From Candidatus Aminicenantes bacterium (GTDB lineage: Bacteria > Acidobacteriota > Aminicenantia > Aminicenantales > Saccharicenantaceae): a stretch of DNA of 64,000 bases. The notes beneath the pieces were generated by a model, which saw only the letters and a program-made list of their open reading frames with translations, was not told the origin of the DNA and ran no database searches. The DNA is taken from assembly GCA_026393975.1 (NCBI GenBank), contig JAPKZD010000018.1, forward strand, positions 160,807-224,806, read 5' to 3'. A program made the translations under genes and the position numbers. This document shows positions 5,017 to 61,810 of the stretch, in pieces; the stretch's first letter is position 1, and every line of letters begins with the position of its first letter.

Positions 5017-5029
5017 AGGGAGGACGACG

Positions 5030-7697: not shown

Positions 7698-7818
7698 AAA
7701 CGCCCGCCGGCCGGGACGAGAAGCGGTCGGGTCACGCTGAATCCTTATGCCCGGACGAAGGAAAGGGGGATAGCTCGGAGTCTTCCGCCGGGCTAAGCCC
7801 CCGCGTTGACCCGCCCGA

Positions 7819-11128: not shown

Positions 11129-11155
11129 GGTCTTCTCCTTACCGCTCATGTCGCG

Positions 11156-18039: not shown

Positions 18040-18215
18040 CCCGTCTTCCGCCCGAAGACCGGTCGACCCTGGCTTACGGAAGGTCTCCTGACTCCCGGAT
18101 CGCTCTCCTCCCAAGCCTTCCAGCCTCGCGGCCGTGGCGTCTCTTGGGATTCGTCCCCGGTTACAGTAGCGGGGGCTGTGTCCGCATCCGACGGACTTCC
18201 CTTCGAATAAGCCGC
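18040..18215 (-). ncRNA. Candidate cobalamin (B12) riboswitch in the 5' leader of the TonB-dependent receptor.
   Basis: Reverse-strand sequence AAGGGAAGUCCGUCGG...GCGGACACAGCCCCCGCUACUGUAACCGGGGACGAAUCC...GCCACGGCC resembles the cobalamin riboswitch core (AGGGAA.CCGG ... CCCGCCACUGUAA with a B12-box-like GCUACUG). Positioned directly upstream of a BtuB-type receptor. Confidence 0.5.
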
Positions 18216-18741
18216 AAGAATTCTAATATAAAAAAAGGATGGGGTCAAACCTTAAATCCTATGCGGTTTAACCCCTTCTTGAACCTTCTTGGAAGCATGA
18301 TCGGGGCTGCCCTGATCCGGGGTCCAGAGCAGGGCAGCCCCTTCTTGGGAATAGGTTAAGGGAGGCCAAAAAGGAGGTCTTTGTTGTCCATCGCTGTCTT
18401 CCATCATGTAGTACGACCGGCAGCGTGAGAGTGTTGCATTTGGAGCGGGGCAGGGCAGAAAAAACCGGCGGGCTATTTTTCGAAGTTTTTCAAATTCCCC
18501 TTGATGACCATTTTAAATTATACCACAAAGCCGCGAGGAAAGCAATGGCTTTTTTGGATCTTTTTAAAAATACTGCGATGGTCGGATTCATGACCAATTT
18601 TTACCTAAAAAACAGCCCTTTCATACGGTTATTCCAGAAATGACCCGGCCAGGGGCCCTCATTTTGAGATTTCCCCTGAAAAATAGTATAGTGGGGGGGC
18701 CTTCAAGAGGGACAAAAGGGCCCTTTATCGAGGAAAAAGGC

Positions 18742-34805: not shown

Positions 34806-34812
34806 GCGGTCA

Positions 34813-34877
34813 AAAAGAAGGTACCAGGTCTCCGCACTGCCAATTTTGGCATTGCGTAGACCTGGTACCTTCTTTTT
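34813..34877. repeat. 65-bp near-perfect palindrome (left flank of the Y1 transposase gene).
   Basis: AAAAAGAAGGTACCAGGTCTCCGCACTGCCAA-TTTTGGCATTGCGTAGACCTGGTACCTTCTTTTTT. The arms are complementary with two mismatches. Same core as the palindrome at 35896..35955. Confidence 0.8.
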
Positions 34878-35821
34878 TAGGGGGGAAGACGACGCTCAAT
34901 TTCGCCGACGGTGCGAGCCAACGTATCGTTGTGAATGAGCTCTTTTCGTATCCGGCGACAAATATCCGTTATTCCGGAAACTCCTAATTGGAAGAACTCT
35001 CCAATCTCTTTGAGCGTGTAATCGGTATCCTTATGGCTGATAAATATCGAGAGATTTCGAGTGAACCTGTTTTTTGAGCCAAGGGACGATTCTGTAGCTG
35101 CGAATATTTGTTCTAGCCCCGGCCGGGGAAAGAGCTTACGGAGTTGAGGTAGGTCTCGAACTGGATGTGCATTTGTATCTGACAGGAATGATTTCCTGAT
35201 CCGTTCGGTGAAGTCGGCATTTCCAAGTATTCCGGTTTGCCTTGCCGCCTCGAGGGGGCTCGGCAGATTTTGGGACAAACGCCAAATAATATGCTCTTCG
35301 TAATTGTTCCTCGCCTCGGCCAGGGACGTCCCGAACAGGCGAAGAACGAACGAGTTAGTCGTCCATGGTTGTGGCGCCGCTATCCCTAAAAATTCACGGT
35401 AATTAGACCAGACGTAATCTTCGGGACGGTTAACGATCCTGGCCCGAACCGGATTAAGGTGGATATAGGGCGCGAGCTCCCGCGCATATTCCTCTGCTTG
35501 AACTAAGATCGCCGTAAATCGAGATTGGAAAGTATGCCCACAGCGGTCATGTTTCAGGTTGAAGTAGCTTGAATACCTCATGTTGATCAAGTGCATGATC
35601 CTAGAAAGCTGGCCCTGAGGTGTTTCAAGAAAAAGATGGTAGTGATTCTCCATCAGGCAATAAACATGTATGACAACGCCTAACTTTTCATGGGCATCTC
35701 TTAAGCAATTAAGGAAGAAATATCTATCCTCATCGGCGAGAAAGATTGGCAGTCTTCTATTCCCTCGAGAGGTCACATGATAGAACGCGCCCGGGAATTC
35801 GATTCTCAGAGGTCTCGCCAT
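34877..35821 (-). CDS. IS200/IS605-like (REP-associated, RAYT-type) Y1 tyrosine transposase with a C-terminal extension.
   Basis: HuH-Y1 motifs FYHVTSRGNRRLPIF and HVYCLMENHYHLFLE. C-terminal region resembles DnaA-C-like HTH extensions seen in some RAYT/IS200-like proteins. Confidence 0.75.
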   Translation of the reverse strand: MARPLRIEFPGAFYHVTSRGNRRLPIFLADEDRYFFLNCLRDAHEKLGVVIHVYCLMENHYHLFLETPQGQLSRIMHLINMRYSSYFNLKHDRCGHTFQSRFTAILVQAEEYARELAPYIHLNPVRARIVNRPEDYVWSNYREFLGIAAPQPWTTNSFVLRLFGTSLAEARNNYEEHIIWRLSQNLPSPLEAARQTGILGNADFTERIRKSFLSDTNAHPVRDLPQLRKLFPRPGLEQIFAATESSLGSKNRFTRNLSIFISHKDTDYTLKEIGEFFQLGVSGITDICRRIRKELIHNDTLARTVGEIERRLPP

Positions 35822-35895
35822 GGCCTCATCTCAAGGAGCTTGTTTCTTGAAGATAGACGCTCAGCCACCAATTCTTTTCTCAAGGGGAAGCGAAC

Positions 35896-35955
35896 AAGAA
35901 GGTACCAGGTCTACGCAATGCCAATTTTGGCATTGCGTAGACCTGGTACCTTCTT
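35896..35955. repeat. 60-bp perfect palindrome (right flank of the Y1 transposase gene).
   Basis: AAGAAGGTACCAGGTCTACGCAATGCCAA-TT-TTGGCATTGCGTAGACCTGGTACCTTCTT. Confidence 0.85.
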
Positions 35956-35961
35956 ATTTTC

Positions 35962-47472: not shown

Positions 47473-48735
47473 ATGCCCTCTTTTTCCGTCCGGAACTTCG
47501 GCTGCCGCGTCAACCGGGCCGAGGCCTTCGCCTGGGCTGAGGCCTTCCGGGAGAGGGGCCTCCGGCTCGAAGAGAATGAGGGCGGGAGCGACGTCGTCCT
47601 GGTCAACTCCTGCACCCTGACCGGCCGGGCCGACCGGGACGTCCGCAAGTTCATCCGGAAAACCGCCCGCGATAACCCCGGGACGAGGATCGTCGTCACG
47701 GGGTGCTACGCCGAGCGGGCGCCCGAGGAGATCGCCGGGATGCCGAACGTCGTCGCCGTCCTCCCGAACAGCGCCAAGGCCCGTCTTCCGGAGCGGGTGA
47801 TGGAGATCGTCGGGGGAGAAGGGGCGAGGATGGGGGCGGCGCAGGAGGCGGAGGTCCCGTTCCGGGCGCGGGCCTTCCTGAAGGTCCAGGACGGCTGCGA
47901 CAACCGTTGCGCGTTCTGCGTCATCCCGAGCGTCCGGGGAAAGAGCGTGAGCGTCGGCCCGGACGAGGTCAAGGCCCGCGTCCGAAAACTCGCCGGCCGC
48001 GGCTTCCGGGAGATCGTGCTGGCCGGTATCCATCTCTCGTCCTACGGGCAGGACCTCGAGCCGCCGGGCACGCTCCTCGGCCTTCTCCGGGAGCTCGAAG
48101 GGATCCCCGAGCTCGGGCGGGTCCGGTTGAGCTCCCTCGACCCGGGGAAGACGGACGGTGCGCTCGTCGAGCACATCGCGGCGAACCCGAAGATCTGTCA
48201 GCACTTCCATCTTTCGCTCCAGCACGCCTCGGCCCGCCTCCTGCGGCTGATGGGCCGCGCCGTGGAGCCGGGAACCTGCGAACGGATATTGGGGGAGTTG
48301 AGGACGAGGTCGCCGGAAGCGGCCCTCGGAGCGGATATCATCGTCGGCTTCCCCGGCGAGACCGCAACGGAGTTCGGTGAGCTGCGGAGTTTCCTGGCCG
48401 GTTCTCCGCTGACATATTTCCACGTCTTTTCGTATTCGCCGCGGCCGGGCACGCCCGCCGCGGGACGGCCCGGTGTCCCGGCGATCGTCGTCAGAGACCG
48501 GGCGATGGAACTCAGGCGGCTCGCGGCGGAGAAGGACTTTCGCTTCCGCAGGCAGTTCGAGGGGCGGGAGCTCGAGGCCGCGGTCATCCACGCGTCGGAG
48601 AAGGGCGCCGAGCTCTTGACGGGAAATGCCATCCGGGTCTTCGTCCCCTCGTGCCGGGCTCCGAAATGCGAGCTCGTCCGGATTGCGATCGGCCGCGTCC
48701 TGCCGCGACGGACGGAAGGCGAGGTCGTCGAGTGA
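47473..48735 (+). CDS. mtaB: MiaB-like tRNA methylthiotransferase (MtaB-type, radical SAM).
   Basis: MTTase N-domain Cys (GCRVN, NSCTLT, TGCY), radical SAM CDNRCAFC, TRAM-like C-terminus. Confidence 0.75.
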   Translation: MPSFSVRNFGCRVNRAEAFAWAEAFRERGLRLEENEGGSDVVLVNSCTLTGRADRDVRKFIRKTARDNPGTRIVVTGCYAERAPEEIAGMPNVVAVLPNSAKARLPERVMEIVGGEGARMGAAQEAEVPFRARAFLKVQDGCDNRCAFCVIPSVRGKSVSVGPDEVKARVRKLAGRGFREIVLAGIHLSSYGQDLEPPGTLLGLLRELEGIPELGRVRLSSLDPGKTDGALVEHIAANPKICQHFHLSLQHASARLLRLMGRAVEPGTCERILGELRTRSPEAALGADIIVGFPGETATEFGELRSFLAGSPLTYFHVFSYSPRPGTPAAGRPGVPAIVVRDRAMELRRLAAEKDFRFRRQFEGRELEAAVIHASEKGAELLTGNAIRVFVPSCRAPKCELVRIAIGRVLPRRTEGEVVE

Positions 48736-50504
48736 AAAAGATCCATCTCCTGTCCGAGGAGGTCGCCCAGAAGATCGCGGCGGGTGAGGTCGTCGAAAGG
48801 CCCGTTTCGGTCGTCAAGGAGCTCGTCGAGAACTCCATCGACGCCGGAGCGACGGACGTCCGCGTCGAGCTCCTCGACGGCGGCAAGCGCCTGATCAAGG
48901 TCCAGGACGACGGCTCCGGGATGGACCGGGAGGACGCCGCCCTTTGCTTCAGACGGCATTCGACGAGCAAGCTTGCCACGGAGGAGGACCTGGAGCGCAT
49001 CGCGACGCTCGGCTTCCGCGGCGAGGCCCTGGCCAGCATCGCCGCCGTCTCTCGGCTGACCCTGCGCACCCAGGACGGGGCCGACGACCGGGGGACGATG
49101 ATCGAGCGGGAGGGCGAGCGCCTCGTCGCGGTCACGGACATCGCTTTCCCGCGCGGCACGAGCGTCGAGGTCAGGGACCTGTTCTTCAACCTGCCGGCCC
49201 GGCAGAAGTTCCTCCGCTCGGGCCCGTCTGAGCTCGGGCCCGTCGCCAAGTACGTAACCCAGGCCGCCTTGGCCGCTCCCGGCGTCCGTTTTACGCTCAT
49301 CCACGGGGCGCGGGAGGTCATCGCCTGCCCCCCGGTCATGACCCTCCGGGAAAGGGTCTTCCAGATCTTCGGAAAGAAGATGGTCGACGGCCTGATGGAC
49401 GTCGCCGCCGAAGAGGGCGGCGGCCGCGTCGAGGGCTTGGCCTCGCGGCCGCTGGCCGGCCGGCCTGACAAGACCGTCCAATACTTTTTCGTCAACGGCC
49501 GTCCGGTCAAGGATAGGATCCTCATGGCCGCCCTCAACCAGGCTTATGCCGGCATCCTCGAGCGGGGAAGGTCGCCCGAGGCGTTCCTCTTCGTGTCCCT
49601 GCCCTACGCCGATGTCGACGTCAACGTCCACCCGGCCAAGGCCGAGGTCCGGTTCAAGGACACCCAGCTCGTATTCCGGCTCGTCCTCCGGGCCGTGGGC
49701 GAAGGCGCCTCCCGCGGACATACAATAAAGGAAGTCCTCCCGGCGGCCGGGGACAAGGGGCCGGCCGGGCGCGTCGCGGAGGAAGGCGCCGCCTGGACGT
49801 CTCGAGGTCTCGGCTTCGGGCCCGCCGCTGTCGTCGTCACCGCCGCTGCGGGCGGCGACGACCGCTTGGCGCCTGGCGCAGCGGCCCGCCTCGGGGGCGG
49901 CGCGGAATTGACGGCGACGTCGGCGGACTCGCAGGTGGCGAAAGGGCCCGCGGTCCTCGGCCAGTACGAGAACATGTACATCGTCGCGGCAGGAGAAGAC
50001 GGCCTTCTCGTCATCGACCAGCACAACGCCCACGAACGCGTCCTTTTCGAGAAGTACCGGGAGATCGATCGAGAAAAGATCTGGCCGCGGAAGACGCTCC
50101 TCATCCCTCCCATCCTCGAGCTCTCCCCCTCGATGGTCGTCAGCCTCGAAACGAACGTCGTCCTCTTCGAGGACCTGGGCTTCCGCGTCGAGACCATGGG
50201 CGGGCGCTCCTACGCCCTCAAAGAATACCCCGACCTCTTCAAACCCGAACAGGCCGTGGATATCTTTCTTGGCCTGCTCGAAGAGGCGGGCCAAAAGACC
50301 GCCGAAGACCGCCGCGAGCACATGTTGGCGACGCTGGCCTGCAAGACGGCCGTGAAAGCCGGGGAGCCCCTGAACAGGGAGAAGATGGGCTATCTTGTTG
50401 AGGAACTATTTAAAACCTCTCAGCCGGCGCTTTGCCCGCACGGGCGACCGGTCGTGGTCCGCATCGATAAGTCTATGATCGATAAGGGCCTCGGAAGAAA
50501 ATAG
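48732..50504 (+). CDS. mutL: DNA mismatch repair protein MutL.
   Basis: GTG start overlapping the mtaB stop. GHKL ATPase motifs IAAGEVVERP, ELVENSIDAG, DDGSGM. C-terminal dimerisation domain. Confidence 0.88.
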   Translation: MKKIHLLSEEVAQKIAAGEVVERPVSVVKELVENSIDAGATDVRVELLDGGKRLIKVQDDGSGMDREDAALCFRRHSTSKLATEEDLERIATLGFRGEALASIAAVSRLTLRTQDGADDRGTMIEREGERLVAVTDIAFPRGTSVEVRDLFFNLPARQKFLRSGPSELGPVAKYVTQAALAAPGVRFTLIHGAREVIACPPVMTLRERVFQIFGKKMVDGLMDVAAEEGGGRVEGLASRPLAGRPDKTVQYFFVNGRPVKDRILMAALNQAYAGILERGRSPEAFLFVSLPYADVDVNVHPAKAEVRFKDTQLVFRLVLRAVGEGASRGHTIKEVLPAAGDKGPAGRVAEEGAAWTSRGLGFGPAAVVVTAAAGGDDRLAPGAAARLGGGAELTATSADSQVAKGPAVLGQYENMYIVAAGEDGLLVIDQHNAHERVLFEKYREIDREKIWPRKTLLIPPILELSPSMVVSLETNVVLFEDLGFRVETMGGRSYALKEYPDLFKPEQAVDIFLGLLEEAGQKTAEDRREHMLATLACKTAVKAGEPLNREKMGYLVEELFKTSQPALCPHGRPVVVRIDKSMIDKGLGRK

Positions 50505-50556: not shown

Positions 50557-50631
50557 CGGGGAGTGGCGCAGCCTGGCTAGCGCGCCTGCCTTGGGAGCAG
50601 GAGGTCGGCGGTTCAAATCCGCTCTCCCCGA
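50557..50631 (+). tRNA. tRNA-Pro (anticodon TGG).
   Basis: Hand-folded cloverleaf: acceptor CGGGGAG/CTCCCCG, anticodon stem-loop CCTGC-CTTGGGA-GCAGG, T-arm GGCGG-TTCAAAT-CCGCT. Confidence 0.8.
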
Positions 50632-50649: not shown

Positions 50650-50723
50650 GCGCCTGTAGCTCAGGTGGATAGAGCAGCTGCCTTCTAAGCAGCGGGTCGG
50701 GAGTTCGAGTCTCTCCAGGCGCG
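50650..50723 (+). tRNA. tRNA-Arg (anticodon TCT).
   Basis: Acceptor GCGCCTG/CAGGCGC, D-arm GCTC-AGGTGGATA-GAGC, anticodon loop CTTCTAA, T-arm GGGAG-TTCGAGT-CTCTC. Confidence 0.8.
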
Positions 50724-50894
50724 CTCCCTCATTCCCCGAGAAAATGGCCATTTAGGCATCATCCTCGGCACTCGAAAAGTGTCGCAATTTTCTACAGCTT
50801 TACACCGCTTTAGGCATCTGTTGAGCACTATTTCGAGCACACATTTGAGCACAGCGGGCTTGCCGGGCTGAAAGGCCAAGGAAGAACGCCGGCC

Positions 50895-50935
50895 GGTCAC
50901 GCCCGAGGTCGCGAGTTCGAGTCTCGTCGCCCCTC
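50895..50935 (+). other. Orphan tRNA 3'-half-like fragment (T-arm plus 3' acceptor strand) with no matching 5' half.
   Basis: GGTCGCGAGTTCGAGTCTCGTCGCCCCTCGC has a canonical T-stem/loop (GCGAG-TTCGAGT-CTCGT) and a 7-nt acceptor strand. No complementary AGGGGCG was found within 400 nt upstream. Confidence 0.5.
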
Positions 50936-51124
50936 GCTTCGTTTGGGCGCAACTTGACATCATAACACTCCGGAAACTAGGATAGCCGAATGAACGTCCA
51001 TCCCCCGATCCGGCGGAATATCCGCCCCTTGTCCCCAGTTCAGATCCGTACGGCGGTGGACGGAATCAGTCTGTTCGGCTGATCAAGCATGACGTCCTCC
51101 TATGACGTCCAAAGAGGAGCGAAC

Positions 51125-54100
51125 ATGAACATGACCACCGCAAGAGCCGCATTCACTCGCCGCTGGATCCTGGTCTTTGCCTTCGTCCTGGCGGTCGCGA
51201 TGTCGGCGGCCTACTTGACGCCGCAGGCGCAAACCGCCGCCAAGAAGGCCATGGCCGTCGACGATTACGCGAAATGGCGCGATATCGCCAGCCCGGCGAT
51301 TTCGGGAGACGGACGGTGGGTTGCCTACGTCCTCCAGCTGACCAATACCATCCCGGCCGAAGCAAAGCCGGCCCTTCACCTGCTGAATCTGGAGACCAAC
51401 GCCGATGTGACGGTGAACGACGCGTCCGATCCGGTCTTCTCTTTGGATTCGAAGTGGATCGCCTATCAGGTGGATCCGGGGGCCGCCCAACGCGCCCGCG
51501 CCGCCCGGACCGGCCCCGGCGGAGCGCCCTCGACGCAGCCGGCCGCGCCCGCCCCGGCTGAAGCCCCCGGCACGCAACAGGATCAGGGCCAGACCGGCCG
51601 CGGGACCGCGGCGGCGGCCATCCCTGCGCGGCGCGTCGAGCTGCGCAATCTGGAGACCGGAGCGGTACGCTCCTGGCAGGACATCGGAACCTTCGCCTTC
51701 GCCCCGACGTCCACCCATCTCGTCCTCCGCCGTCGCGGCGCCGAAACGGCCGGTCCCACGGGCCGGAGAGACGGCGGCGGCCCGCAGGCGCCGGTCGGAG
51801 GCGCCGCGTCCGCGAGCGCCGCCGTCGGTTCGCGTGGGCAGGACGCCATTCTGCTGGATCTGCGGACAGGGAGTTTCCAGCTTCTCGGAAGCGTGGGCGA
51901 GTTCGCCTTTAGCCGCAGCGGCGAGCTTCTCGCCTTCACCGTGGAGGCCGCCGTGAAGGACGGCAACGGCGTCTTCATCTTCGACTCGCGCAACGGGCGC
52001 GTGACGCCGCTCGACAACGATGCCCAGATCTACGGCCGGCTCGCCTGGAACGAGGACGGCACGGCCGTCGCCGTGCTCAAGGGGAGCGAAGTCGAGAAAA
52101 TGCGCGAAAGGAACAACGTGCTCGTCGCCTTTCCGGACATCTCCGCGGCGTTGAAGGACGGTGCCGGCGCACCGTTGGCGGTTCTCTTCGAACCCGCAAA
52201 AGCGGACGGCTTTCCCAAGGGCTGGGTCGTCAGCGACCGGGCTGCCCTTGCCTGGAGCGAGGACAACAAACGGGTGTTCTTCGGTATCAAAGAGCAGGCG
52301 CCGACGCCCGATACGACGCGCAAGTCGACGGACGAGGCGGCCGACGTCGACGTCTGGAACACGGGAGACGAGCGGGTCCAATCCCTGCAAATGGTCCGGG
52401 CTGAACAGGATCGCAACTTCACCTTCCGCCAGGCCTTCGACATCTCGGCGAAACGGTTTATCAAGCTCGCCGACGAGACGATGCGGGAGCTCGACGTCGC
52501 CCCGGACGGCACATGGGCCGTGGGATTGGATACGCGCGCCTATATCCGCAATGAAAAGATCCTGCCGACGGCGGACATCTACCGTGTGAACACATCCACA
52601 GGCGAGCGGACGCTCGTTGTCAAGGGCCAACTGACCGGCCGGCACACGTTCGGCATTAGCCCCCATGGCCGGCATTTCCTCTTCTGGAAGGACAACAAGA
52701 TCCAGGCCTACGACTTCGAAGCGGGGACGACGAAGGCCCTCGGCGCCGGTACGGTGAGCTTCGTGGACCTCGAATACGACCACCCGGGGGCGAAGCCCTC
52801 CTATGGCATCACAGGCTACTCGAGCGACGGCAAGGCGGTCATCGCCCAGCACCGCTACGATCTGTGGCTCGTTCCCTTTGACGGTAGCGCGGCCAAGAAC
52901 CTGACCCACGGTGTCGGGGCGAAGAGCGAGATCCGCTTCCGCATCCTCCGCCCCGTGCCGGCGGACCCGACTCTTCCCCGCTCGGTCGGTCCCCGCGGGA
53001 CCATCGATCTCTCGAAGCCGATCACCCTGTCCGCGTACGGCGAATGGACGAAGAAATCCGGATATTATGAGCTCGCGGGCGGGCAATTGAAGGAGCTCAT
53101 TTATGAAGACGCTTCGTTCAACAATCCAGTCCGGGCGATGAAGGCGGATCGCTTTCTCTTCACCCGCCAGACGTTCGTCGAGTTTCCGGACCTCCGCGTC
53201 TCCGGTCCGAGCTTCAGGGAATCCAAGAAGATCTCCGACGCCAACCCGCAACAGAAGGATTATCTGTGGGGCCATCGCCTGCTTTTCGACTACAAGAACA
53301 AGGACGGCGTGAGGCTGCAGGGCATCCTGGCCATCCCGGACGATTACAATCCGGGCGAAAAGTGTCCCATGCTCGTCATCTTCTACGAGAAGAACTCACA
53401 GAACATGCACATGTACAGCGCCCCGGCCTATCTTCCCAGCATGGGACGGATGCCGGTCCAGGCAGTCAGCGACGGCTACCTGTCTATGCTGCCGGACATC
53501 CACTTCCGCACCGGCTCCTCGCACACCGACATGCTGGAATGCGTCGAGGCGGCCACGCGCAAGGTCATAGAGATGGGCTACGCCGACCCGAAGCGCATCG
53601 GCGTCTCCGGACACAGCTACAGCGGCGAAGGCGCGGCCTTCATCGGGACGATGTCCAAGATGTTCGCCGCCGTCGGCATGGGTGCCGGCGTCGTCGACCT
53701 GTACAACGATTTCAGCATGCCCTGGGGCTGGGGATACGGCTACCAGGGCGGGAGCGGCGATACCGCGTTCCAGTACTACCTCTACGATCAAGGCCGCTGG
53801 GGTTTCTCGCCCTGGGACCGGCCCGACCGATACTATTTCGAGTCAGCCCTCACCCATGCCCCGAACGTGAGCGCGCCGTTCCTCATCATGCACGGGACGG
53901 CCGACCCGACGGTCGGCTTCATCAACGGGCTCGCTTTCTACAACGCCCTGCGCTACAACGGCAAGAAGGCCGTCCTGCTGGCCTATCCGAACGAGGGCCA
54001 CGGGCTGCGCGGATTGGCGAACCGAAGGGATCTGACCATCCGGTTCTTCGAATTCTTCGACCATTACCTCAAGGGTACGCCGGCGCCGAAGTGGCTGACC

Positions 54101-54142
54101 GAGGGCGTGCCTTACCTGAAGAAGGAGGGGGGCGTCTCCTAA
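51125..54142 (+). CDS. S9-family serine peptidase (prolyl oligopeptidase / acylaminoacyl-peptidase type) with an N-terminal TolB-like beta-propeller; secreted.
   Basis: AGAGGAG RBS before MNMTT, signal peptide, WD/TolB-like repeats. C-terminal alpha/beta-hydrolase with GVSGHSYSGEGAAF (GxSxG) and the His/Asp region MHGTADPTV. Confidence 0.8.
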   Translation: MNMTTARAAFTRRWILVFAFVLAVAMSAAYLTPQAQTAAKKAMAVDDYAKWRDIASPAISGDGRWVAYVLQLTNTIPAEAKPALHLLNLETNADVTVNDASDPVFSLDSKWIAYQVDPGAAQRARAARTGPGGAPSTQPAAPAPAEAPGTQQDQGQTGRGTAAAAIPARRVELRNLETGAVRSWQDIGTFAFAPTSTHLVLRRRGAETAGPTGRRDGGGPQAPVGGAASASAAVGSRGQDAILLDLRTGSFQLLGSVGEFAFSRSGELLAFTVEAAVKDGNGVFIFDSRNGRVTPLDNDAQIYGRLAWNEDGTAVAVLKGSEVEKMRERNNVLVAFPDISAALKDGAGAPLAVLFEPAKADGFPKGWVVSDRAALAWSEDNKRVFFGIKEQAPTPDTTRKSTDEAADVDVWNTGDERVQSLQMVRAEQDRNFTFRQAFDISAKRFIKLADETMRELDVAPDGTWAVGLDTRAYIRNEKILPTADIYRVNTSTGERTLVVKGQLTGRHTFGISPHGRHFLFWKDNKIQAYDFEAGTTKALGAGTVSFVDLEYDHPGAKPSYGITGYSSDGKAVIAQHRYDLWLVPFDGSAAKNLTHGVGAKSEIRFRILRPVPADPTLPRSVGPRGTIDLSKPITLSAYGEWTKKSGYYELAGGQLKELIYEDASFNNPVRAMKADRFLFTRQTFVEFPDLRVSGPSFRESKKISDANPQQKDYLWGHRLLFDYKNKDGVRLQGILAIPDDYNPGEKCPMLVIFYEKNSQNMHMYSAPAYLPSMGRMPVQAVSDGYLSMLPDIHFRTGSSHTDMLECVEAATRKVIEMGYADPKRIGVSGHSYSGEGAAFIGTMSKMFAAVGMGAGVVDLYNDFSMPWGWGYGYQGGSGDTAFQYYLYDQGRWGFSPWDRPDRYYFESALTHAPNVSAPFLIMHGTADPTVGFINGLAFYNALRYNGKKAVLLAYPNEGHGLRGLANRRDLTIRFFEFFDHYLKGTPAPKWLTEGVPYLKKEGGVS

Positions 54143-54256
54143 ATCCTCTCGTGTGCGTGATGCTTCGTAGGGGATATGATGCCTCCCATTGACCGGCCCC
54201 CCCCCTTATTGTTAACCTTGGCCTAATCAGGCAGGAACCCGAAAGCAGGAGAGACG

Positions 54257-56184
54257 ATGGGCTCATCAAGCGGGGGGACGGCTCCTTCCGGGGATAAGAA
54301 TAGGGCTTCTTTCCCTGAATTTTTCCAGAAACTTCGCAAGCGCCATATCATCGAAACCCTTGCCGCCTTCATCGGCGGCGGGTGGCTTCTTGTCGAGGTC
54401 GTCGAGCGGCTTCTGGTTGGCCATTACCGTTTTCCTGAGGAAACCATCGACCTGACAGTCGTCTCGGTCATTGGCGCCCTCCTCGCGACCATCGTCTGGC
54501 GCTGGTTCCGGAGCGCTGAGAAGCGGCCGGGAAACGTCAAGCTCGAGGTCCTGCTTGTTCCTTTGATCTTGCTCGCGACCCTGGCAATTGATCTAGCTAT
54601 TCTTTTAAAGATCCTTGGCATTCCCGGCAAGACCCTGCTTGTGGCTGCTGTCGCCCTCTGCCTCGGGATCGTCTGGGTCATCCTCAAGCTCTCGCAATGG
54701 GCGGCTGCCCCGTCCTCATCGTCCGTTGAACGCGTCCAGGCTCCCGCCGAATCCCTTACTCCTACCCCGGCTGTCCCCGAAAAATCCATCGTGGTGCTTC
54801 CCTTCGCCGACCTCAGCCCCCAAAAAGACCAGGAATACTTCTGCGATGGGATGACCGAAGAGATCATTACCGATCTCTCCCATGTCCATGATCTTCTAGT
54901 CATCTCCCGCTCGTCGGCGATGACGTTCAGGGGGAGCTCAAAGACGGTCCGCGAAATCGCCAGGGACCTGAACGTCCACTACGTCATGGAGGGGGCAGTG
55001 TCCGCAAGGCCGGGAACGATCTCCGGATCACCGCCCAGTTCATCGACGCCACGAACGATGCCCACGTCTGGGCCCAGAAATATTCCGGCACGCTCGATGA
55101 CGTGTTTGATATTCAGGAGAAAGTCTCCCGGTCCATTGTCGATGCCCTCAAGATCAAGTTGAGCTCGGGAGAGATCGAGAAGATCTCCGAACGGCTTATC
55201 GATAACGTCCAGGCCTACGACTGCTATCTCAGGGCGAAGCGTGACATCTTCGAGTGCACGCCCGATGCCCTCAAAAGGGCGCTCCGTGACCTTGAGGCCG
55301 GTCTCTCCGTCCTGGGCGATAACGTTCTTCTGAATCAGGGCATGGCGGAAGTCTATCTGCATTATTATGAGTATGGGTTTAAATCGGACGAAGAGACCCT
55401 GCAAAAAGCTGAAGAATATACGAGAAAGGTCATACGCCTGAAGCCGAAATCCGCCGAGGGATATTACCTGCTCGGGCGGATCGAGCGGTTCCGGGGCAGC
55501 GTCATCAAAGCCATCGGATACTTCAGAAGCGCTCTGGCGACGGATCCGAACCATAGCAGCGCGCTGCTCTTCCTGGCCAACGGGCTTGGCCTCCATGCCG
55601 GCAAGCCCCGCCTCGCGGAGCCCTTGCTGGCCAGGCTTCGGGAGATCGACCCGCTCACGCCCCTTTTTCTTTTCGTGTCTGGATACATCCAATTGTTGGA
55701 TGGCAAACCTGACCACGCCCTCCTGACATTCCAATATATGATAAACATGGAGCCAGACCTCGCGGCATTTGGCAAGTTTGCGATCGCCATTTCCCTAGCC
55801 TGGCAGGGGCGTTACGATGAGGTCTTCAGGCTGGCCGACGAATCGATCTCGCGCTGGCCCGATGACAACGTCGCCCTGTGGACCCTGGCTTTTAAATACG
55901 CCCTGCAAGGCGAGAAGAAGAAAGCCTTAGATACGTTCACCGATAAGGCGAGGGAGTTCTTCTGGAATGATCCGGAGGTGCCGTGGTTTGGCGCGAGCCT
56001 GTTCGCGCTTGTCGACGAAAAGGAGGAAGCCCTGCGTTGGCTCGAACACTCCGTCGACCGAGGGTGGATCAACTACCCCGTTTTTGCCGAGCGAAGCCCC
56101 TTCTTCGCCAACATCCGCGGCGAAGAGCGTTTCAAGAAGCTCATGGAGCGGGTGAAGTACGAGTGGGAGCATTTTGAAGCATAG
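54257..56184 (+). pseudogene. Membrane-anchored TPR-repeat protein with a TolB-like N-terminal domain (adenylate-cyclase/CadC-associated), split by a frameshift in a G5 run near 54987-54991.
   Basis: Frame A ends ...NVHYVMEG then nonsense. Frame B continues SVRKAGNDLRITAQFIDATNDAHVWAQKYSGTLDDVFDIQEKV, matching the conserved continuation of this domain. The shift maps to ATGGAGGGGGCAG. Confidence 0.65.
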
Positions 56185-56401
56185 CAATGGGAAAATATGT
56201 TTGCCGGAAGCATGCGCGAACCTCAGTTTTGGAGGGGCTAAGAAGAACCGCCTGTTCATGACCGCCAGCCAGTCTCTCTATGCCGTTTATGTTGAGGCGA
56301 AGGGCGCGTAGTTCGGCTTCTGGAATCTTGCGGCCGGCGCCGCATTGTCATGGCGAAGGGGAGACCGGCCCCTGAAGGTCATTCGCATGAGGAGGGAACC
56401 T

Positions 56402-57397
56402 ATGAAAGGCAAACGGGTCCTTATATCGGCCCTGGCAGTCTTGACATCTCTCACCGCCATTGGATATTTCGGCCGGATCTTCGCCCGGCAGACCAGCCCG
56501 CCGGCGACGCTTGGTGCTCGAAAGGCTGCGGAACCGCCCCGGTCTTCGGGCGTGGTGGTTGTGCGCGGCATGGCGATGCCCTATCTCGCCCAAGGATCCG
56601 GGATTCCCTGCCTGGTCGCCGGCTATTCATCCCTGTATCAAGCGGTCTTCTCGGACGAGCTCATGAAGCATTTTCAGTTCATCTTTGTGGATTGGAAGAA
56701 TTCGTTCGCGGCCGATGATCCCTTTCCACAGGCTGCTAAGATCACGATCGATACCCTGGTGGATGATCTGGACGAAGTCCGCCGTCAGCTCGGTCACGAG
56801 AAGATCGCGATTCTCGGGGCCTCATATCCGGGATTCCTTCCGCTCGCCTATGGAAAGAAATACCCGAGCCACGCCTCGCATCTGATCAGCATCGGCACTC
56901 CGCCCTATGCGAACAAGAAAACCGATAAGGCGAGTGCTGAGTACTGGGAGCGAGACGCATCGCCCGAAAGGAAGGCGGCGCACCGGCGCCATCTTGAAGC
57001 GCTGTCGAAAAGCCTTCTCGAAAAGCTCGAGCCCCTTGAGCGTTGGGTCATGCAATACATCAGGGATCGGGCGATCTGCTGGGCGAACCCGGAATATGAT
57101 TGTTATTGGCTCTGGCTGGGCAAACGCTTCAGCTTAGACTTTGAGCATCAATATTACAGCGTCCTTTTAGCCGACTACGATCCGACACCTGACTTCCAGG
57201 CGATCACGGCGCCGGTCTTTATTGCGAACGGCCGCTATGATTACTGGACGCCGCCCAAGCTGTGGGAAGCCGAGAAAGGGAAGCTGCCGAACCTCACGTA
57301 CCATTTGTTCGAAAACAGTGGGCACTGGCCTATGTGGGAAGAGCAGGAGCTTTTTGACCGGAGGATGATCGACTGGCTGCAAAGCACAAAAAAATGA
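56402..57397 (+). CDS. Alpha/beta-hydrolase-fold protein; secreted.
   Basis: RBS GAGGAGGG, start MKGKRVLISALAVLTSLTA. Nucleophile-elbow-like ILGASYPGF, and C-terminal His region NSGHWPMWE. Confidence 0.55.
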   Translation: MKGKRVLISALAVLTSLTAIGYFGRIFARQTSPPATLGARKAAEPPRSSGVVVVRGMAMPYLAQGSGIPCLVAGYSSLYQAVFSDELMKHFQFIFVDWKNSFAADDPFPQAAKITIDTLVDDLDEVRRQLGHEKIAILGASYPGFLPLAYGKKYPSHASHLISIGTPPYANKKTDKASAEYWERDASPERKAAHRRHLEALSKSLLEKLEPLERWVMQYIRDRAICWANPEYDCYWLWLGKRFSLDFEHQYYSVLLADYDPTPDFQAITAPVFIANGRYDYWTPPKLWEAEKGKLPNLTYHLFENSGHWPMWEEQELFDRRMIDWLQSTKK

Positions 57398-57491
57398 ATA
57401 TTCCCCCATATTAAACTTGACTCGGGCCGGTCCCCGACGTAAATTTTGGAGCAGCAACAGCGATTGGATTGAAGTCGGAAAGGGGGATCGA

Positions 57492-58295
57492 ATGTTCATT
57501 GGCAGGTACTCGAAGATGGTCGCCGTATTGGCCGGTTGGATCGTTCTCTCCCCGATTCTTGCTTCGGCCCAGAAAGCCATCATCATCGACGACGATCTCA
57601 GGGCCAACGCCGACGTCCTGAAGGTCAAGATGGGCACCCAGGCGCTGGGAAAGATATGGAAATTCAAGTTCGGCGAATTTGGCATCGTCTCGAGCAAGAT
57701 GGGCGCGGCCAAGACCACAACTACGGGCGCATTTCTCAGCCCGGTGGAGAAAAGCCGGACCAAGCAGAAATTCTCGTTCGTCCTGAAAGGGGCTGGCCCC
57801 GAGACCGTCAGTGTCAAAGCGGCCCAGAACCTCGAGTCCGAAGCCCTCAACGAGATTGCGATCTCACCCAGGGTCTCGATGAGTGTCGTGGACATATCGG
57901 GGACATCCGACAATCTCGTGGCCGAAATAGCATTCGACGGCGAATCCGCAAAACCCTGGACTCTTCTCGTTCAGGTCGCCAGCAGCCTGGCCGTCCTCAA
58001 GGAGAACACCCTGTCATCCTTATTGACCGACGGGACCCGGGAGATCGTCATCACTCCCGTGACGTCGGACGAACTCGGCGCCAAGTCGAGGGGCACGCCC
58101 GCCCGCGGCTACGAATTGTCCGAGGCTGGACAGGCCCTGGGCGCGGTCCAGTACTGGGGGGGCGGGGTCTTAGGGTTCAACAAGAATGTCGTCTACATGC
58201 GCCGGGACCTGGATACGAAGACGAAGCTCCTGCTGGCGGCGGCCATGACAACTATCCTGCAGGTCAAGGTCAACGCCCAGACGTCGTTGGACTGA
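57492..58295 (+). CDS. Hypothetical secreted protein.
   Basis: Start MFIGRYSKMVAVLAGWIVLSPILASA (signal peptide) after GGGGGA. No recognisable domain. Confidence 0.5.
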   Translation: MFIGRYSKMVAVLAGWIVLSPILASAQKAIIIDDDLRANADVLKVKMGTQALGKIWKFKFGEFGIVSSKMGAAKTTTTGAFLSPVEKSRTKQKFSFVLKGAGPETVSVKAAQNLESEALNEIAISPRVSMSVVDISGTSDNLVAEIAFDGESAKPWTLLVQVASSLAVLKENTLSSLLTDGTREIVITPVTSDELGAKSRGTPARGYELSEAGQALGAVQYWGGGVLGFNKNVVYMRRDLDTKTKLLLAAAMTTILQVKVNAQTSLD

Positions 58296-58372
58296 TCGTC
58301 GCCCCTGGCGACCGCAGGTTGGCTTCCCCTGGCTGCCTGTCATTCTTGGGCCGGCGGATAAGGGGGCTAGAA

Positions 58373-58531
58373 ATGGCCATCAAGTGTCCTTAGTGTCATT
58401 CTGACAACCCGGACACGGGCCGGTTCTGCGCCAGTTGCGCCGCACTGCTCGCGTCCGCTCCTGGCTCCTCCGCCTCTCCGGCCGAGACCGCCCAACCCCC
58501 CCTTATCCGGGAGCTCGTTTCGGGCCGCGCG
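58373..58531 (+). pseudogene. Zinc-ribbon domain gene remnant with an in-frame TAG at codon 7, truncated after 52 codons.
   Basis: MAIKCP*CHSDNPDTGRFCASCAALL... matches the double-CxxC zinc-ribbon N-terminus (CPxC...FCxxCG). The TAG is at 58391-58393. The ORF ends where the TGAGCAC repeats begin. Confidence 0.5.
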
Positions 58532-58608
58532 TGAGCACAATTCTGAGCACACCTTTCGTAGACGAGCTCGCAAACCATTCATCTTCCTTCAATTAAGAAC
58601 GCAACCTA

Positions 58609-58659
58609 GCTGCCTTCTAAGCAGCGGGTCGGGGGTTCGAGCCTCTCCAGGCGCGCCAT
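58609..58659 (+). repeat. 51-nt direct repeat of the 3' half of tRNA-Arg(TCT), including CCA; att-like.
   Basis: AGCTGCCTTCTAAGCAGCGGGTCGGGGGTTCGAGCCTCTCCAGGCGCGCCA versus tRNA-Arg positions 50675..50723. Identical except two substitutions (A to G in the T-stem, T to C in the T-loop). Confidence 0.8.
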
Positions 58660-58935
58660 CTTTTTTCGCGAGGCGGCTCCTCTCCCCCGAGGCGGCCCCT
58701 CACCCCTATAGAGGAGACAATTTTTGTTTATTTCACCCAGGCAATGCTCACGCCGGGTGATTGACGCAATTTGTCGATAAGCGAGAATAGGGCTATTGGA
58801 GAAATGCCTTGGTTCCCGTGAGCTTCTGCCTGGCGAGAGAAAATTCGGCTTCCCGGTCGTCTAATAGAAGATGGAAATCGAGGTACCCGGTGATTGACAG
58901 GAATTGTCCAAAATAATATGATTATGGAATAAAAA

Positions 58936-60666
58936 ATGGCATCCAACCTGGGCGAGCTTCTTTTACGGGAAAAGATCGTTTCCGTCGACCAGTTGAAGTC
59001 CGCTCTTGAATTCCAGAAGAAAAACAGCTTGCCCGTCGGCACCTCGCTCGTCCAGCTCGGCTATCTGACCGAGGAAGACATCGCCCAGGCCCTTAGCCGC
59101 CAGCTCGGCTACCCATACATCGACCTCGACCAGTTCGACGTTTACCCCGAAGTCATCAGCCTCATCCCGGTCGACGCGGCCAAGAAGCACATGGTCATGC
59201 CCATCCACCGGATCCGGTCCTTCCTGACCCTGGCCATGGTCGACCCGACCGATCTCGAGATCATCGAGGACATCCGCTTCCGGACGGGGCTCTCCATCCA
59301 GCCCGTTATCGCCTCGGAGACGGGCGTCGTCAACGCCATCAATAAGTACTACGGGACGGCCGACTCCATCCGGGTCAAGAAGATCATCGAGGATATCGCC
59401 CTGGCCGACGACGGCCGCGTCAACATTGTCGAGGACGAGAAAGAGGACAACGTCCTCGACAACATGGATAGCGAGGCCGACGAGGCCCCGATCATCAAGC
59501 TCGTCAACCAGACCTTCATCGACGCCATCAAGCGGGGCGCGAGCGACGTCCACTTCGAGCCGTACGAAACGAGCTTCCGCGTCCGCTACCGGATGGACGG
59601 CGACCTCTACGAGATCGTCAGCCTGCCGCTGAAGTACCGCAGTCCGGTCATCTCCCGGGTCAAGATCCTGTCGAACATGGACATCGCCGAGAAGCGCCTG
59701 CCCCAGGACGGCCGGATCAAGATGCGCATCCGCCTCGACAACGGGAAAAAGAAGGAAGTCGACATGCGCGTCTCCTCGATACCCACGCTGTGGGGGGAGA
59801 AGATCGTCGCCCGGATCCTCGATAAAGAGATGCTCAAGCTCGACCTGACCCAACTCGGGTTCGAGGAGGAGTCCCTGGTCGCCTTTCAGGACGCCATTCA
59901 CAAGCCCTGGGGCATCGTCCTCGTCACCGGGCCAACCGGGAGCGGCAAGACGAACACGCTCTACTCGGCGGTCTCGACGATCAACACGCCGGACATGAAT
60001 ATCCTGACCGCCGAGGACCCGGTCGAGTTCAACGTCCCGGGCATCAACCAGGTCCAGATCAAGGAAGAGATCGGCCTGACCTTCGCCACCTGCCTGCGGA
60101 GCTTCCTGCGCCAGGACCCCGACATTATGCTTGTCGGCGAGATGCGCGACCAGGAGACGGTCGACATCGCCATCAAGGCCGCCCTGACGGGCCACCTGGT
60201 CTTCTCCACCATCCACACGAACGACGCCGCGAGCTCCATCGTCCGCATGGTCAACATGAACATCGAACCCTTCCTCATCGCCGACTCGCTCATGCTCGTC
60301 GTCGCCCAGCGGCTCATCCGCCGCCTCTGTAAGAAGTGCGCCCAGCCCCACGCCCTGCCCGAAGCCGCCCTGCTCGAGATGGGTTACCAAAAGAGCGAGC
60401 TCAAGGGACTCCAGATCATGAAGCCCGGCAGCTGCGAAGCCTGCAACAGGACCGGATACAAGGGCCGGACGGCCCTCTTCGAGGTCATGAAAATCGACGA
60501 CGACATCCGGGCCATGATCCTGACCCGGGCCCAGTCCCGGGAGATCAAGAAAAAAGCCATCGAGAAGGGCATGCTGACCCTGAGGCGGAGCGGCCTCGTC
60601 AAGATCAAGACCGGAGTCACCTCGGTCGAGGAAGTCCTGCGGGAAACCGTCCGGGACGAAATCTAG
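58936..60666 (+). CDS. pilB: Type IV pilus assembly ATPase PilB (GspE family).
   Basis: GspII_E N-domain, Walker A LVTGPTGSGKTNTL, Asp/His boxes, tetracysteine motif CKKC...CEAC. Confidence 0.88.
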   Translation: MASNLGELLLREKIVSVDQLKSALEFQKKNSLPVGTSLVQLGYLTEEDIAQALSRQLGYPYIDLDQFDVYPEVISLIPVDAAKKHMVMPIHRIRSFLTLAMVDPTDLEIIEDIRFRTGLSIQPVIASETGVVNAINKYYGTADSIRVKKIIEDIALADDGRVNIVEDEKEDNVLDNMDSEADEAPIIKLVNQTFIDAIKRGASDVHFEPYETSFRVRYRMDGDLYEIVSLPLKYRSPVISRVKILSNMDIAEKRLPQDGRIKMRIRLDNGKKKEVDMRVSSIPTLWGEKIVARILDKEMLKLDLTQLGFEEESLVAFQDAIHKPWGIVLVTGPTGSGKTNTLYSAVSTINTPDMNILTAEDPVEFNVPGINQVQIKEEIGLTFATCLRSFLRQDPDIMLVGEMRDQETVDIAIKAALTGHLVFSTIHTNDAASSIVRMVNMNIEPFLIADSLMLVVAQRLIRRLCKKCAQPHALPEAALLEMGYQKSELKGLQIMKPGSCEACNRTGYKGRTALFEVMKIDDDIRAMILTRAQSREIKKKAIEKGMLTLRRSGLVKIKTGVTSVEEVLRETVRDEI

Positions 60667-60694: not shown

Positions 60695-61810
60695 ATGGCG
60701 AAACCGATATTCGAACTCTTGAAGGCCTGCGTGGAAGCCGACGCGAGCGACCTCCACATCACGACCTACATCCCGCCGCGCATCCGCGTCCACGGCATAC
60801 TCAAGGACATCGAGCACCCGGCCCTGACGCCTTCCGAGACGAAAGAGGTCATCTACAGCATCATGACCGACAAGCAGAAGCGGCAGTTCGAGGAGAAGCT
60901 CGAGCTCGACTTCTCGTTCGGGGTCAAGGAGCTCGGCCGGTTCAGGGCCAACGTCTTCATGCAGAAGGGCGCCGTGGCCGGGGCCTTCCGCCGCTTTCTG
61001 CCCACGATGTGGAGCTTCGCCCAGCTCGGCATCCCCCAGCGCGTCCAGCAGCTCTGCTTCCTGCCGCGGGGCCTCGTCCTCGTCACCGGGCCGACCGGCT
61101 GCGGCAAGTCGACGACCCTGGCCTGCATGATCGAGCACATCAACTCGGAGCGGCCGGTCCACATCGTCACCATCGAGGACCCCATCGAATACTACCTGAC
61201 GCCCCGCAAGGCCATCATCAACCAGAGGGAGCTTTACGCCGACACCATGTCCTACGGCAACGCCCTCCGCTCGGTCCTCCGCGAGGACCCGGACGTCGTC
61301 CTCATCGGCGAGATGCGCGACCTCGAAACCGTCGAGGCCAGCCTCCGTGTCGCCGAGACTGGCCACCTGACCTTCTCGACGCTCCACACGAATTCGGCCG
61401 TCGAGAGTATCAGCCGCATCATCGATATCTTCCCCAGCCAGTACCAGACGCAGATCCGGATCATGCTGTCCATGTCGCTCGAGGCCGTCATGACCCAGGC
61501 GCTCCTGCCCCGGATCGACGGCAAGGGCCGCGTCCTGGCCATGGAGATCCTCATCCCCAACCCGGCCATCCGGAACCTCATCCGCGAGAACAAGATCCAC
61601 CAGATCTACTCGACCATGCAGATGGGCCAGGAGAAGTTCGGGATGCAGACGTTCAACCAGTCCCTGGCCAGCCTGTACTACCGCAAGCTGGTCAGCCTCG
61701 ACGTGATCATGAGCATGAGTTCCTTCCCCGAAGAGCTGACCGATATCATCCAGCGCCACGACGGCGTGAAGATCACCCGCGGCGGGTCCGCGGGGTCGTC
61801 CAGAAAATAG
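60695..61810 (+). CDS. pilT: Type IV pilus retraction ATPase PilT (twitching motility).
   Basis: Walker A LVLVTGPTGCGKST, VLIGEMRDLET, AETGHLTFSTLHTNSA. Confidence 0.88.
   Translation: MAKPIFELLKACVEADASDLHITTYIPPRIRVHGILKDIEHPALTPSETKEVIYSIMTDKQKRQFEEKLELDFSFGVKELGRFRANVFMQKGAVAGAFRRFLPTMWSFAQLGIPQRVQQLCFLPRGLVLVTGPTGCGKSTTLACMIEHINSERPVHIVTIEDPIEYYLTPRKAIINQRELYADTMSYGNALRSVLREDPDVVLIGEMRDLETVEASLRVAETGHLTFSTLHTNSAVESISRIIDIFPSQYQTQIRIMLSMSLEAVMTQALLPRIDGKGRVLAMEILIPNPAIRNLIRENKIHQIYSTMQMGQEKFGMQTFNQSLASLYYRKLVSLDVIMSMSSFPEELTDIIQRHDGVKITRGGSAGSSRK

Follow-up and report, generated by a model that had tools for sequence, protein, structure and literature searches.

Tandem cargo-only cassettes at the tRNA-Arg(TCT) gene of a Candidatus Aminicenantes bacterium

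Contig JAPKZD010000018.1 of a Candidatus Aminicenantes bacterium (assembly GCA_026393975.1) carries a tRNA-Arg(TCT) gene whose 3' part recurs some 8 kb downstream, beyond a short run of genes for a secreted peptidase, a hydrolase, and other proteins. This report describes the segment between the two copies, the conserved att-like unit that borders it, and the family of small gene cassettes in which that unit recurs. The window, that is, the whole stretch of DNA analysed, comprises 64,000 nucleotides (nt; positions 160,807 to 224,806 of the contig), and coordinates given without a locus designation refer to it; genome loci and metagenome contigs used for comparison are designated L001, L002, and so on. 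An initial annotation of the window had read the segment as a single degenerate 8-kb island that had lost its integrase.

Insertion at the tRNA-Arg gene

The gene order mutL-tRNAPro-tRNAArg to the left of the segment is kept in all Aminicenantes relatives examined, and pilB and pilT lie to the right (Table 1). Its MutL relatives place the organism in Candidatus Aminicenantes. An empty site is found in seven relatives (L002, L004, L016, L035, L036, L032, and L039), where tRNA-Arg is followed by pilB-pilT within about 250-450 nt; the order downstream of the empty-site tRNA-Arg is pilB-pilT-orf314. Relatives whose MutL is 88-91% identical have pilB directly after tRNA-Arg.

The longest direct repeat of the region, as located by a repeat finder, is a 49-nt block shared with two mismatches (at 58634 and 58642) by the intact tRNA-Arg (50676-50724) and the distal copy (58608-58656). 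It starts at tRNA position 26/27, the base preceding the anticodon stem, and closes with the first C of CCA; both substitutions of the distal copy are in the T-arm. The distal copy runs on as G-CCA (58655-58658), while of the CCA the intact gene encodes the first C alone. The initial annotation had recognised the intact tRNA-Arg at the left end and a direct repeat of its 3' part with two substitutions and an encoded CCA; ARAGORN moves the end of the gene to 50724, and the shared block measures 49 nt, not 51.

Positions 58608-59000 are colinear with the 3' half of the tRNA and the trailer of L002 and L004, with homology starting at tRNA position 26/27. Because the empty sites of the relatives are colinear in this way, the 7.9 kb at 50725-58607 are an insertion into the tRNA-Arg gene, and the original 3' end, now displaced, survives as the distal partial copy. 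The earlier assignment of the two copies as attL and attR is thereby upheld, as is the presence-or-absence comparison proposed with it: the segment is absent from the seven relatives, which pass from tRNA-Arg to pilB. The same empty sites with their colinear trailer refute the view that the distal copy arose by ancient partial duplication of tRNA-Arg, or is a pseudogene of it, and that the genes between the copies are native. This view has the repeat itself in its favour and nothing more, and the content of the locus varies even against a 98%-identical relative; its probability is close to nil.

The locus also leaves its mark on assemblies. L018 contains an inverted duplication at 9981-14004 (mutL-tRNAPro, then tRNAArg-tRNAPro-mutL on the opposite strand) centred on tRNA-Arg, and contigs L001, L013, L022, and L029, from metagenome-assembled genomes, also terminate at or near these tRNAs. 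L018 and the contig ends at tRNAs suggest that assemblies break at a variable array.

Table 1. Features of the tRNA-Arg locus, with the basis of each assignment where given.
Feature	Coordinates	Strand	Basis or remarks
mutL	48651-50504		left flank
tRNA-Pro(TGG)	50557-50631	+	ARAGORN, Rfam; conserved left context mutL-tRNAPro-tRNAArg
tRNA-Arg(TCT), intact, attL side	50650-50724	+	ARAGORN, Rfam (65 bits)
L-arm of att unit	50725-50860	+	alignment of 10 left arms; consensus of 41 R-core-L units
Decayed tRNA-Asp(GTC) 3' fragment, anticodon stem to acceptor	~50888-50935	+
Cassette 1 cargo	50954-54146	+	promoter-like site 50954-50983; secreted S9 peptidase gene 51089-54142 (prolyl-oligopeptidase family, Pfam)
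Cassette 1/2 junction, R-arm-core-L-arm unit deleted	54147-54154
Cassette 2	54155-58338	+	95% nt identical to L121 1349-5515
Frameshifted membrane-TPR gene, cassette 2	54257-56184	+	Pfam
Alpha/beta hydrolase, cassette 2	56345-57397	+	Pfam
Signal-peptide hypothetical, cassette 2	57417-58295	+
Cassette 3 remnant, Zn-ribbon Ser/Thr-kinase stub	58373-58534	+	translation compared with kinase L030 12495-14993
R-arm of att unit	58530-58607	+	alignment, conservation profile; >100 homologous copies
Displaced native tRNA-Arg 3' part, attR core and native CCA	58608-58658	+
Native tRNA trailer and pilB upstream region	58659-58935	+	right flank, outside the insertion; colinear with L002, L004
PilB	58936-60666		right flank, Pfam
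PilT	60695-61810		right flank, Pfam

A shared att unit and its cassettes

Both ends of the segment carry short tandem repeats. The L-arm begins with about 20 nt that are tRNA-trailer-like (TCCCTCATTCCCCGAGAAAA), includes a terminator-like hairpin at 50766-50784, and terminates with GAGCAC(A) in three copies (50823, 50835, and 50847) that have a period of 12 nt. The R-arm has GAGCAC at 58533 and 58545, again with a period of 12 nt, in the arrangement TGAGCACA-ATTC-TGAGCACA (58532-58551), followed by CATTCAT and TCAATTAAGAA blocks up to the core. All GAGCAC clusters of the window lie just inside the two segment ends, and each of its three TGAGCACA octamers belongs to these terminal arrays. With up to two mismatches allowed, the dimer pattern GWGCACAAWTNYGARCACA has three matches, all at the segment ends, against 0.01 expected in 64 kb. 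The TGAGCAC arrays had been reported previously with the correct spacing of 12 nt on the left; the right-hand spacing is likewise 12 nt rather than the 13 nt given.

Partial tRNA-Arg copies downstream of the tRNA are also present in L003, L006, L008, L009, L010, L026, L038, and L041, and L030 has four. The consensus of the approximately 80 nt directly upstream of the partial copy, the R-arm, is TGAGCACAATTCTGAGCACA ... CATTCAT ... TCAATTAAGAAGGCnGCCC. The L-arm consensus, approximately 135 nt directly downstream of the core, starts TCTCTTATTCCyCGAGAAAATGGCCATTTAGGCATCATCC and ends TTGTCGCAATTTTGTACAGCTTTAyACCGTTTTAGGCATCyGTTGAGCACAcattTGAGCACAGy; its proximal stretch resembles the native tRNA trailer. 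In the 41 unique complete R-core-L junctions, hardly any variation is seen in the TGAGCACAATTCTGAGCACA repeat pair or in the first ~20 nt of the L-arm, while the other arm positions vary. Alignments of the arms show that the likeness among unrelated cassettes ends exactly at the outer TGAGCACA repeats on both sides, and the identity block begins precisely at the anticodon stem in all copies. Tandem 8-bp direct repeats, all in one orientation, thus frame the core at ~60 and ~105 bp, although the repeats ~105 nt out are the L-arm end of a subset of cassettes only. On these alignments, the att unit appears to measure about 260 bp and to consist of the ~80-nt R-arm, a 49-nt tRNA-Arg core (positions 26/27-74), and the L-arm.

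RNAalifold found no conserved secondary structure in the arms (~0 kcal/mol) and Rfam no match, and a known RNA family or folded site was dropped as an explanation. Some cassettes depart from the common layout. GH31 cassettes (L003 8828-9014, L009 9811-9953) are without an L-arm and have a different shared start after the tRNA (TTTCCCCTGGTTTTGTCGGTTTTGCAGAG).

The family was followed into metagenomes with a pattern made of the R-arm and the start of the core. At least 120 contigs match, and 119 of the 120 listed are genuine; L132 was set aside as a chance match to the pattern. Metagenome contigs and genome loci together (151 sequences) hold at least 237 core copies, at least 200 of them partial, and an R-arm precedes 147 of the partial copies, a frequency biased upward by the ascertainment of the metagenome contigs through the R-arm. 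Arrays start at mutL-tRNAPro-tRNAArg (e.g., L098, L115, L116, L124, L126, L169, L187, and L202) and end as R-arm, core, native trailer, and pilB (L136, L168, L154, and L099). Among the matches listed, 86 core-to-core intervals are complete, with a median length of 3.0 kb and a range of 0.45-8.4 kb, and 46 of the 86 (53%) contain a single open reading frame (ORF; at least 120 amino acids). The 168 ORFs of these intervals fall into 91 clusters, 65% of them lie on the tRNA strand, and promoter-like sites are present inside cassettes. Foremost in number is a Zn-ribbon Ser/Thr kinase that has TPR or beta-propeller domains and is represented by 76 ORFs in 59 loci; the remaining cargo consists of glycosidases, peptidases, esterases, oxidoreductases, a sulfatase, RNase II, sigma factors, and sigma-54 activators. 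The segment therefore belongs to a widespread family of small cargo-only cassettes that share one conserved att unit and are stacked at tRNA-Arg.

One contig, L176 (1-8648; Ga0315281_10020704), has identical 127-nt ends, giving an 8521-nt circular path through three cassettes, two with kinase genes and one a three-gene unit, without a mutL or pilB flank. No other contig has identical ends. L157 and L176 have 1.7 kb in common at 99.9% identity, after which identity drops to 85%. L176 could be explained as a multi-cassette circle that was excised, as a tandem duplication, or as a strain-graph artefact.

Within the window, at least three cassettes make up the segment, bearing an S9 peptidase, four genes, and a kinase stub. 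The S9 module, from the L-arm to 54146, occupies the first position in L038 and L015 and an internal one in L158 and L041. Homology among its copies stops 4 nt past the stop codon (54146), and L015 keeps a truncated R-arm and a degenerate core right after that codon. Homology to L121 and L092 starts at 54151-54155, where R-core-L units precede it in those contigs, and the four-gene module of L121 stands alone between an R-core-L unit and a core. The end of cassette 2 is formed by the first ~8 nt of a core (GGCTGCCT, 58331-58338), all that remains of that core in the window. The genes of the interior are those named by the initial annotation (S9 peptidase, frameshifted TPR protein, alpha/beta hydrolase, and secreted hypothetical). 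The TPR frameshift consists of two additional nucleotides in a G-run near 54993, compared with an intact 650-amino-acid ORF in L121. The zinc-ribbon ORF has 54 codons and an in-frame TAG, and it corresponds to the first ~52 codons of a full-length kinase (L030 12495-14993); it ends in the first TGAGCACA, the remainder of the kinase gene having been deleted up to the R-arm, so that the right-hand array does cut off this ORF as described before.

The two main modules also differ in composition. Cassette 2 has a GC content of 0.574, a third-codon-position GC (GC3) of 0.68-0.78, and a tetranucleotide correlation (r) to the left flank of 0.81, against a GC of 0.643 +/- 0.018 (minimum 0.592) and r of at least 0.946 in 4-kb windows of the host. 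Cassette 1 (GC 0.64, GC3 0.84, r 0.93) shows no such deviation, its GC3 resembling that of the host. The expected contrast with the host is therefore confined to cassette 2, which is compositionally foreign, with a lower GC.

The observations on the modules bear directly on the island reading, according to which a phage, an integrative and conjugative element (ICE), or an integrative and mobilizable element (IME) integrated once with its own integrase and the mobility genes were later deleted. The outer attL and attR are indeed intact around a decayed interior (frameshift, stop codon, truncated gene), and the segment looks like one block with its internal junctions missing. However, the S9 module (in L038, L015, L158, and L041) and the four-gene module (in L121) are each found separately elsewhere with their own att units, so the segment is not one island. 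The two modules are unlike in GC and GC3, L038 as the closest relative has no more than the S9 module and the right end in common with the segment, and the 86 other cassettes are mostly single-gene and none has a recombinase remnant. A single island is largely refuted and must be considered very unlikely, and the claim of one degenerate island with a lost integrase falls with it, the family being cargo-only. The decay lies in two internal junctions (deletions) and two genes (frameshift, stop codon), not in a lost integrase. Since the internal att junctions are destroyed, the interior is now fixed, and the outermost attL/attR pair alone is intact.

Sequence identities point to movement of the cassettes. 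Compared with L015, the window is 75% identical at the nucleotide level in MutL, 83-84% in PilB, and 84% in PilT, and 91% identical in the S9 peptidase gene; compared with L038, all three flank genes are ~98% identical and the S9 gene 95.5%. The S9 gene is thus closer to L015 than the core flank genes are and more distant from L038 than its flanks. L038, the closest relative, has other genes in place of cassettes 2 and 3. The S9 and flank identities and the differing content of L038 show that cassettes move from lineage to lineage and are replaced within lineages. In the L-arm region, the window (50725-54146) and L038 (886-4249) are 89.7% identical, with a ~50-nt deletion in L038. The "same" S9 cassette in the window and L038 hints at independent acquisition or recombination.

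A second tRNA remnant lies near the left end of the segment. The initial annotation had described an orphan tRNA 3' fragment there and proposed that its family be identified; the fragment is real (~50888-50935), and it proves to derive from tRNA-Asp(GTC), unrelated to tRNA-Arg. Its anticodon loop is mutated to CGGTCAC and it is without CCA, and it aligns to the 3' part of an intact tRNA-Asp(gtc) in L098 (10258-10334). That full-length counterpart stands inside an array, ~400 nt after an R-core-L unit. Equivalent tRNA-Asp fragments are found ~30 nt beyond the L-arm in L038, L124, L154, and L182. In chimeric copies of L204, L141, and L127, the Arg anticodon arm is joined in the T-loop to an Asp-like 3' end. 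Because of the alignment to tRNA-Asp and the T-loop chimeras, the fragment is ascribed to a different element, as the scar or att remnant of one associated with tRNA-Asp and the T-loop.

L204 carries a prophage at 1-8147 with TerL, a prohead protease, and a 594-amino-acid large serine recombinase. It sits in the T-loop of a partial tRNA-Arg copy that retains its R-arm. The phage end brings a tRNA-Asp-like T-arm and acceptor with CCA, and the chimeric join abuts the prophage.

Recombinase searches and the proposed mechanism

The search for a recombinase covered the window, L001-L041, and L089-L208, approximately 1.5 Mb, in six-frame ORFs of at least 80 amino acids. Catalytic-motif regular expressions covered tyrosine and serine recombinases, and phmmer was run with XerD, lambda Int, and Cre, that is, tyrosine recombinases only. 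Neither the segment nor the 64-kb window holds a recombinase by the motif expressions or a tyrosine recombinase by phmmer, in agreement with the earlier statement that the segment contains no integrase. Across the ~1.5 Mb of arrays and loci, both methods match only the L204 prophage. Pfam finds no recombinase or transposase in 33 scanned cargo clusters, each present in at least three loci, and only enzymes and regulators among the window genes, 10 island ORFs, and the 33 recurrent clusters. Scans of IMG/VR with R-arm, R-arm plus core, and core plus L-arm patterns gave chance matches or nothing, with no contig bearing the arms, so a viral origin was dropped; PLSDB plasmid and phage records gave matches of the tRNA core alone.

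The insertion and its boundaries, the family, the composite nature of the segment, the horizontal spread, and the absence of recombinases in cis can be stated with high confidence. The reading that best unites them is that non-autonomous, cargo-only cassettes are inserted site-specifically into the 3' part of tRNA-Arg(TCT) by an integrase acting in trans, to which a probability of roughly 0.65 is attached. The gene for a heterobivalent tyrosine integrase would lie elsewhere in the chromosome or on a helper element, and the enzyme would bind the TGAGCACA arm repeats and the inverted anticodon-stem halves (GCTGC/GCAGC), with strand exchange in the anticodon-loop region. Integration would rebuild a functional tRNA from the core of the cassette and displace the former tRNA 3' part, with all that followed, downstream; repeated integration events would produce arrays. 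The recombinase type, the role of the repeats, and the crossover position are deduced from the layout of the site, and this trans-acting tyrosine-integrase mechanism is judged only slightly better than an even chance. An attempt to map the crossover by tRNA allele differences was uninformative because the displaced tRNA copies have decayed.

Two features of the site suggest the enzyme class. Tandem 8-bp direct repeats on both arms match the arm-site layout of lambda-type, heterobivalent tyrosine integrases, and Williams reportedly described in 2002 a block of identity extending from the anticodon stem up to the 3' end of the tRNA as the signature of anticodon-loop tRNA sites. The TGAGCACA-N4-TGAGCACA pairs on both arms are thus putative arm-type integrase sites. 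This was one of the roles that the initial annotation had offered for the TGAGCAC arrays, and it gains plausibility from their being the most conserved part of the att-like unit and marking its outer edges.

Several points weigh against this reading. The window, the arrays, IMG/VR, and the plasmid and phage records yielded neither a cognate integrase nor an autonomous element with this attP, which leaves the central actor hypothetical, and a very divergent or novel enzyme could escape the regular expressions, the three queries, and Pfam on representatives. At many internal junctions the R-arm and core are present while the L-arm is reduced to its proximal ~20 nt or is missing altogether. This asymmetry of R and L is not predicted by a simple two-armed attP x attB model. 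The R-arm frequencies carry the ascertainment bias given above. Finally, units of 130-260 bp and the conserved mutL and pilB flanks could let homologous recombination move cassettes.

The last point underlies the main rival, in which no dedicated recombinase acts now, the units and the mutL and pilB flanks serve as homology anchors for RecA, for example after natural transformation, and TGAGCACA represents transcription-factor sites or terminator and promoter modules. It accords with the failure to find an integrase anywhere searched, with units long enough for homologous recombination, and with an array that adjoins type IV pilus genes; the L-arm has a terminator-like hairpin with promoter-like sites after it, and the chimeric copies of Arg core and Asp 3' end, joined in the shared T-loop, resemble homology-driven products. 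However, homology explains neither how each new cargo was first captured nor how the tRNA is regenerated exactly, conservation centres on short repeats that keep a fixed distance from the core on either side, and the repeats are kept even at the terminal R-arm by pilB, with nothing there to regulate. The identity block also starts uniformly, at the anticodon stem, across copies. Weakened by the conserved arm repeats, the terminal R-arm, and the uniform block start, the RecA explanation is regarded as rather improbable.

A helper of another class seen nearby might instead move the cassettes, either the L204 large serine recombinase or an HUH Y1 transposase encoded in the window. The L204 enzyme abuts a partial core, the window Y1_Tnp protein is flanked by perfect palindromes, and tRNA fragments form hairpins in single-stranded DNA. 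Yet the L204 phage is in the T-loop with a tRNA-Asp-like end, a different site with a different identity block, and serine integrases work without arm repeats; the Y1 gene is bounded by palindromes of its own that are unrelated and are absent at the array, and the arms have no conserved hairpin. Both candidates were rejected, the serine recombinase as belonging to a prophage with a terminase that is inserted at the T-loop of a core copy and the transposase for the absence of its palindromes from the array, and either is a highly improbable source of the activity.

The Y1 gene lies in a low-GC (0.48) insertion at 34812-35960, with a 314-amino-acid ORF (34877-35821, minus strand) whose Y1_Tnp domain is that of an IS200-like HUH transposase. 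The same perfect palindrome of ~56 nt, GAAGGTACCAGGTCTACGCAATGCCAA..TTGGCATTGCGTAGACCTGGTACCTTC, stands on both sides of the ORF and has no further copies in the window. The insertion looks like a RAYT/IS200-type unit. Elsewhere in the window, a TonB-dependent receptor gene (16058-18001) has a cobalamin riboswitch upstream (18061-18231, minus strand; 93.5 bits in Rfam).

Relation to known systems and meaning

Integration at tRNA genes and the presence of integrase-less remnants there are textbook phenomena. The cassettes share with tRNA islands of the tyrosine-integrase, anticodon-loop type the insertion at a tRNA 3' part, the regenerated tRNA, the repeat from anticodon stem to 3' end, the displaced native 3' end with CCA at the far border, and attP-like arms with tandem short repeats. 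They differ in that no integrase or excisionase was found in the element, units measure 0.45-8.4 kb and usually hold one cargo gene, up to four or more units stand in tandem, and one att unit is found on more than 90 cargo families.

Islands at ssrA of Dehalococcoides carry their own serine recombinase and a ~20-bp ssrA repeat. Like the arrays described here, they are tandem islands at one small-RNA gene with 3'-end direct repeats and adaptive cargo (PMC3146451). Cis-mobilizable elements (CIMEs) are recognised by att sites common to a known ICE or IME (PMC5704250). They are similar in being bounded by att sites, in lacking recombination and transfer modules, in standing in tandem at one site, and in their presumed dependence on the integrase of a related element (PMC5704250); in contrast, the loci, IMG/VR, PLSDB, and phage records yielded no autonomous partner of the present cassettes, and the cassettes far exceed described CIMEs in number and diversity.

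By definition, tycheposons have a hallmark tyrosine recombinase and replication genes inside the element (bioRxiv 10.1101/2020.12.28.424599). The Prochlorococcus islands that they shape are, like the arrays, tRNA-adjacent islands of flexible genes in which tandem elements are split by partial tRNAs and carry niche-adaptive enzymes, and additional partial tRNAs mark older events, as they do here (bioRxiv 10.1101/2020.12.28.424599). No hallmark recombinase and no replication or packaging genes were found in the Aminicenantes arrays, however, and the att arms are unrelated.

attC-site clusters that have no integron integrase (CALINs) are likewise cargo-only arrays of mostly single genes with their own recombination sites, no integrase nearby, and a presumed integrase in trans (PMC11389934). 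The site here is conserved in sequence, derived from a tRNA, and without a conserved hairpin, whereas attC sites are imperfect palindromes conserved in structure. The platform is a tRNA gene rather than an attI beside intI, and the cassettes are ~3 kb long, many with promoter-like sites and with a third of their genes on the opposite strand. The segment thus lacks the integrase of tRNA islands and tycheposons, the autonomous partner of CIMEs, and the attC structure of integrons.

What is unusual is the scale and regularity of the system: one att unit on ~90 unrelated cargo families, mostly single genes, stacked at the same tRNA across an uncultured class with no recombinase found in cis. A more speculative extension, offered tentatively and as doubtful, is that a large Aminicenantes clade has in its tRNA-Arg(TCT) locus a dedicated gene-capture platform, integron-like in function and different in mechanism. 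It would hold hundreds of cargo-only cassettes with tRNA-derived, TGAGCACA-armed sites of ~130-260 bp, served by one trans-acting integrase per genome or helper, with multi-cassette circles as intermediates, of which L176 would be one.

For annotation, the lesson is that a stack of hitchhiking cassettes, and not a decayed prophage or ICE, can lie behind an "island without integrase". The conserved R-arm provides a simple probe for such arrays and, with whole genomes, for their helper. If a single trans-acting integrase is indeed responsible, the arrays would constitute a second, independently evolved cassette-array system besides integrons, and one that would help explain the diversification of secreted hydrolases and Ser/Thr kinases in the Aminicenantes.

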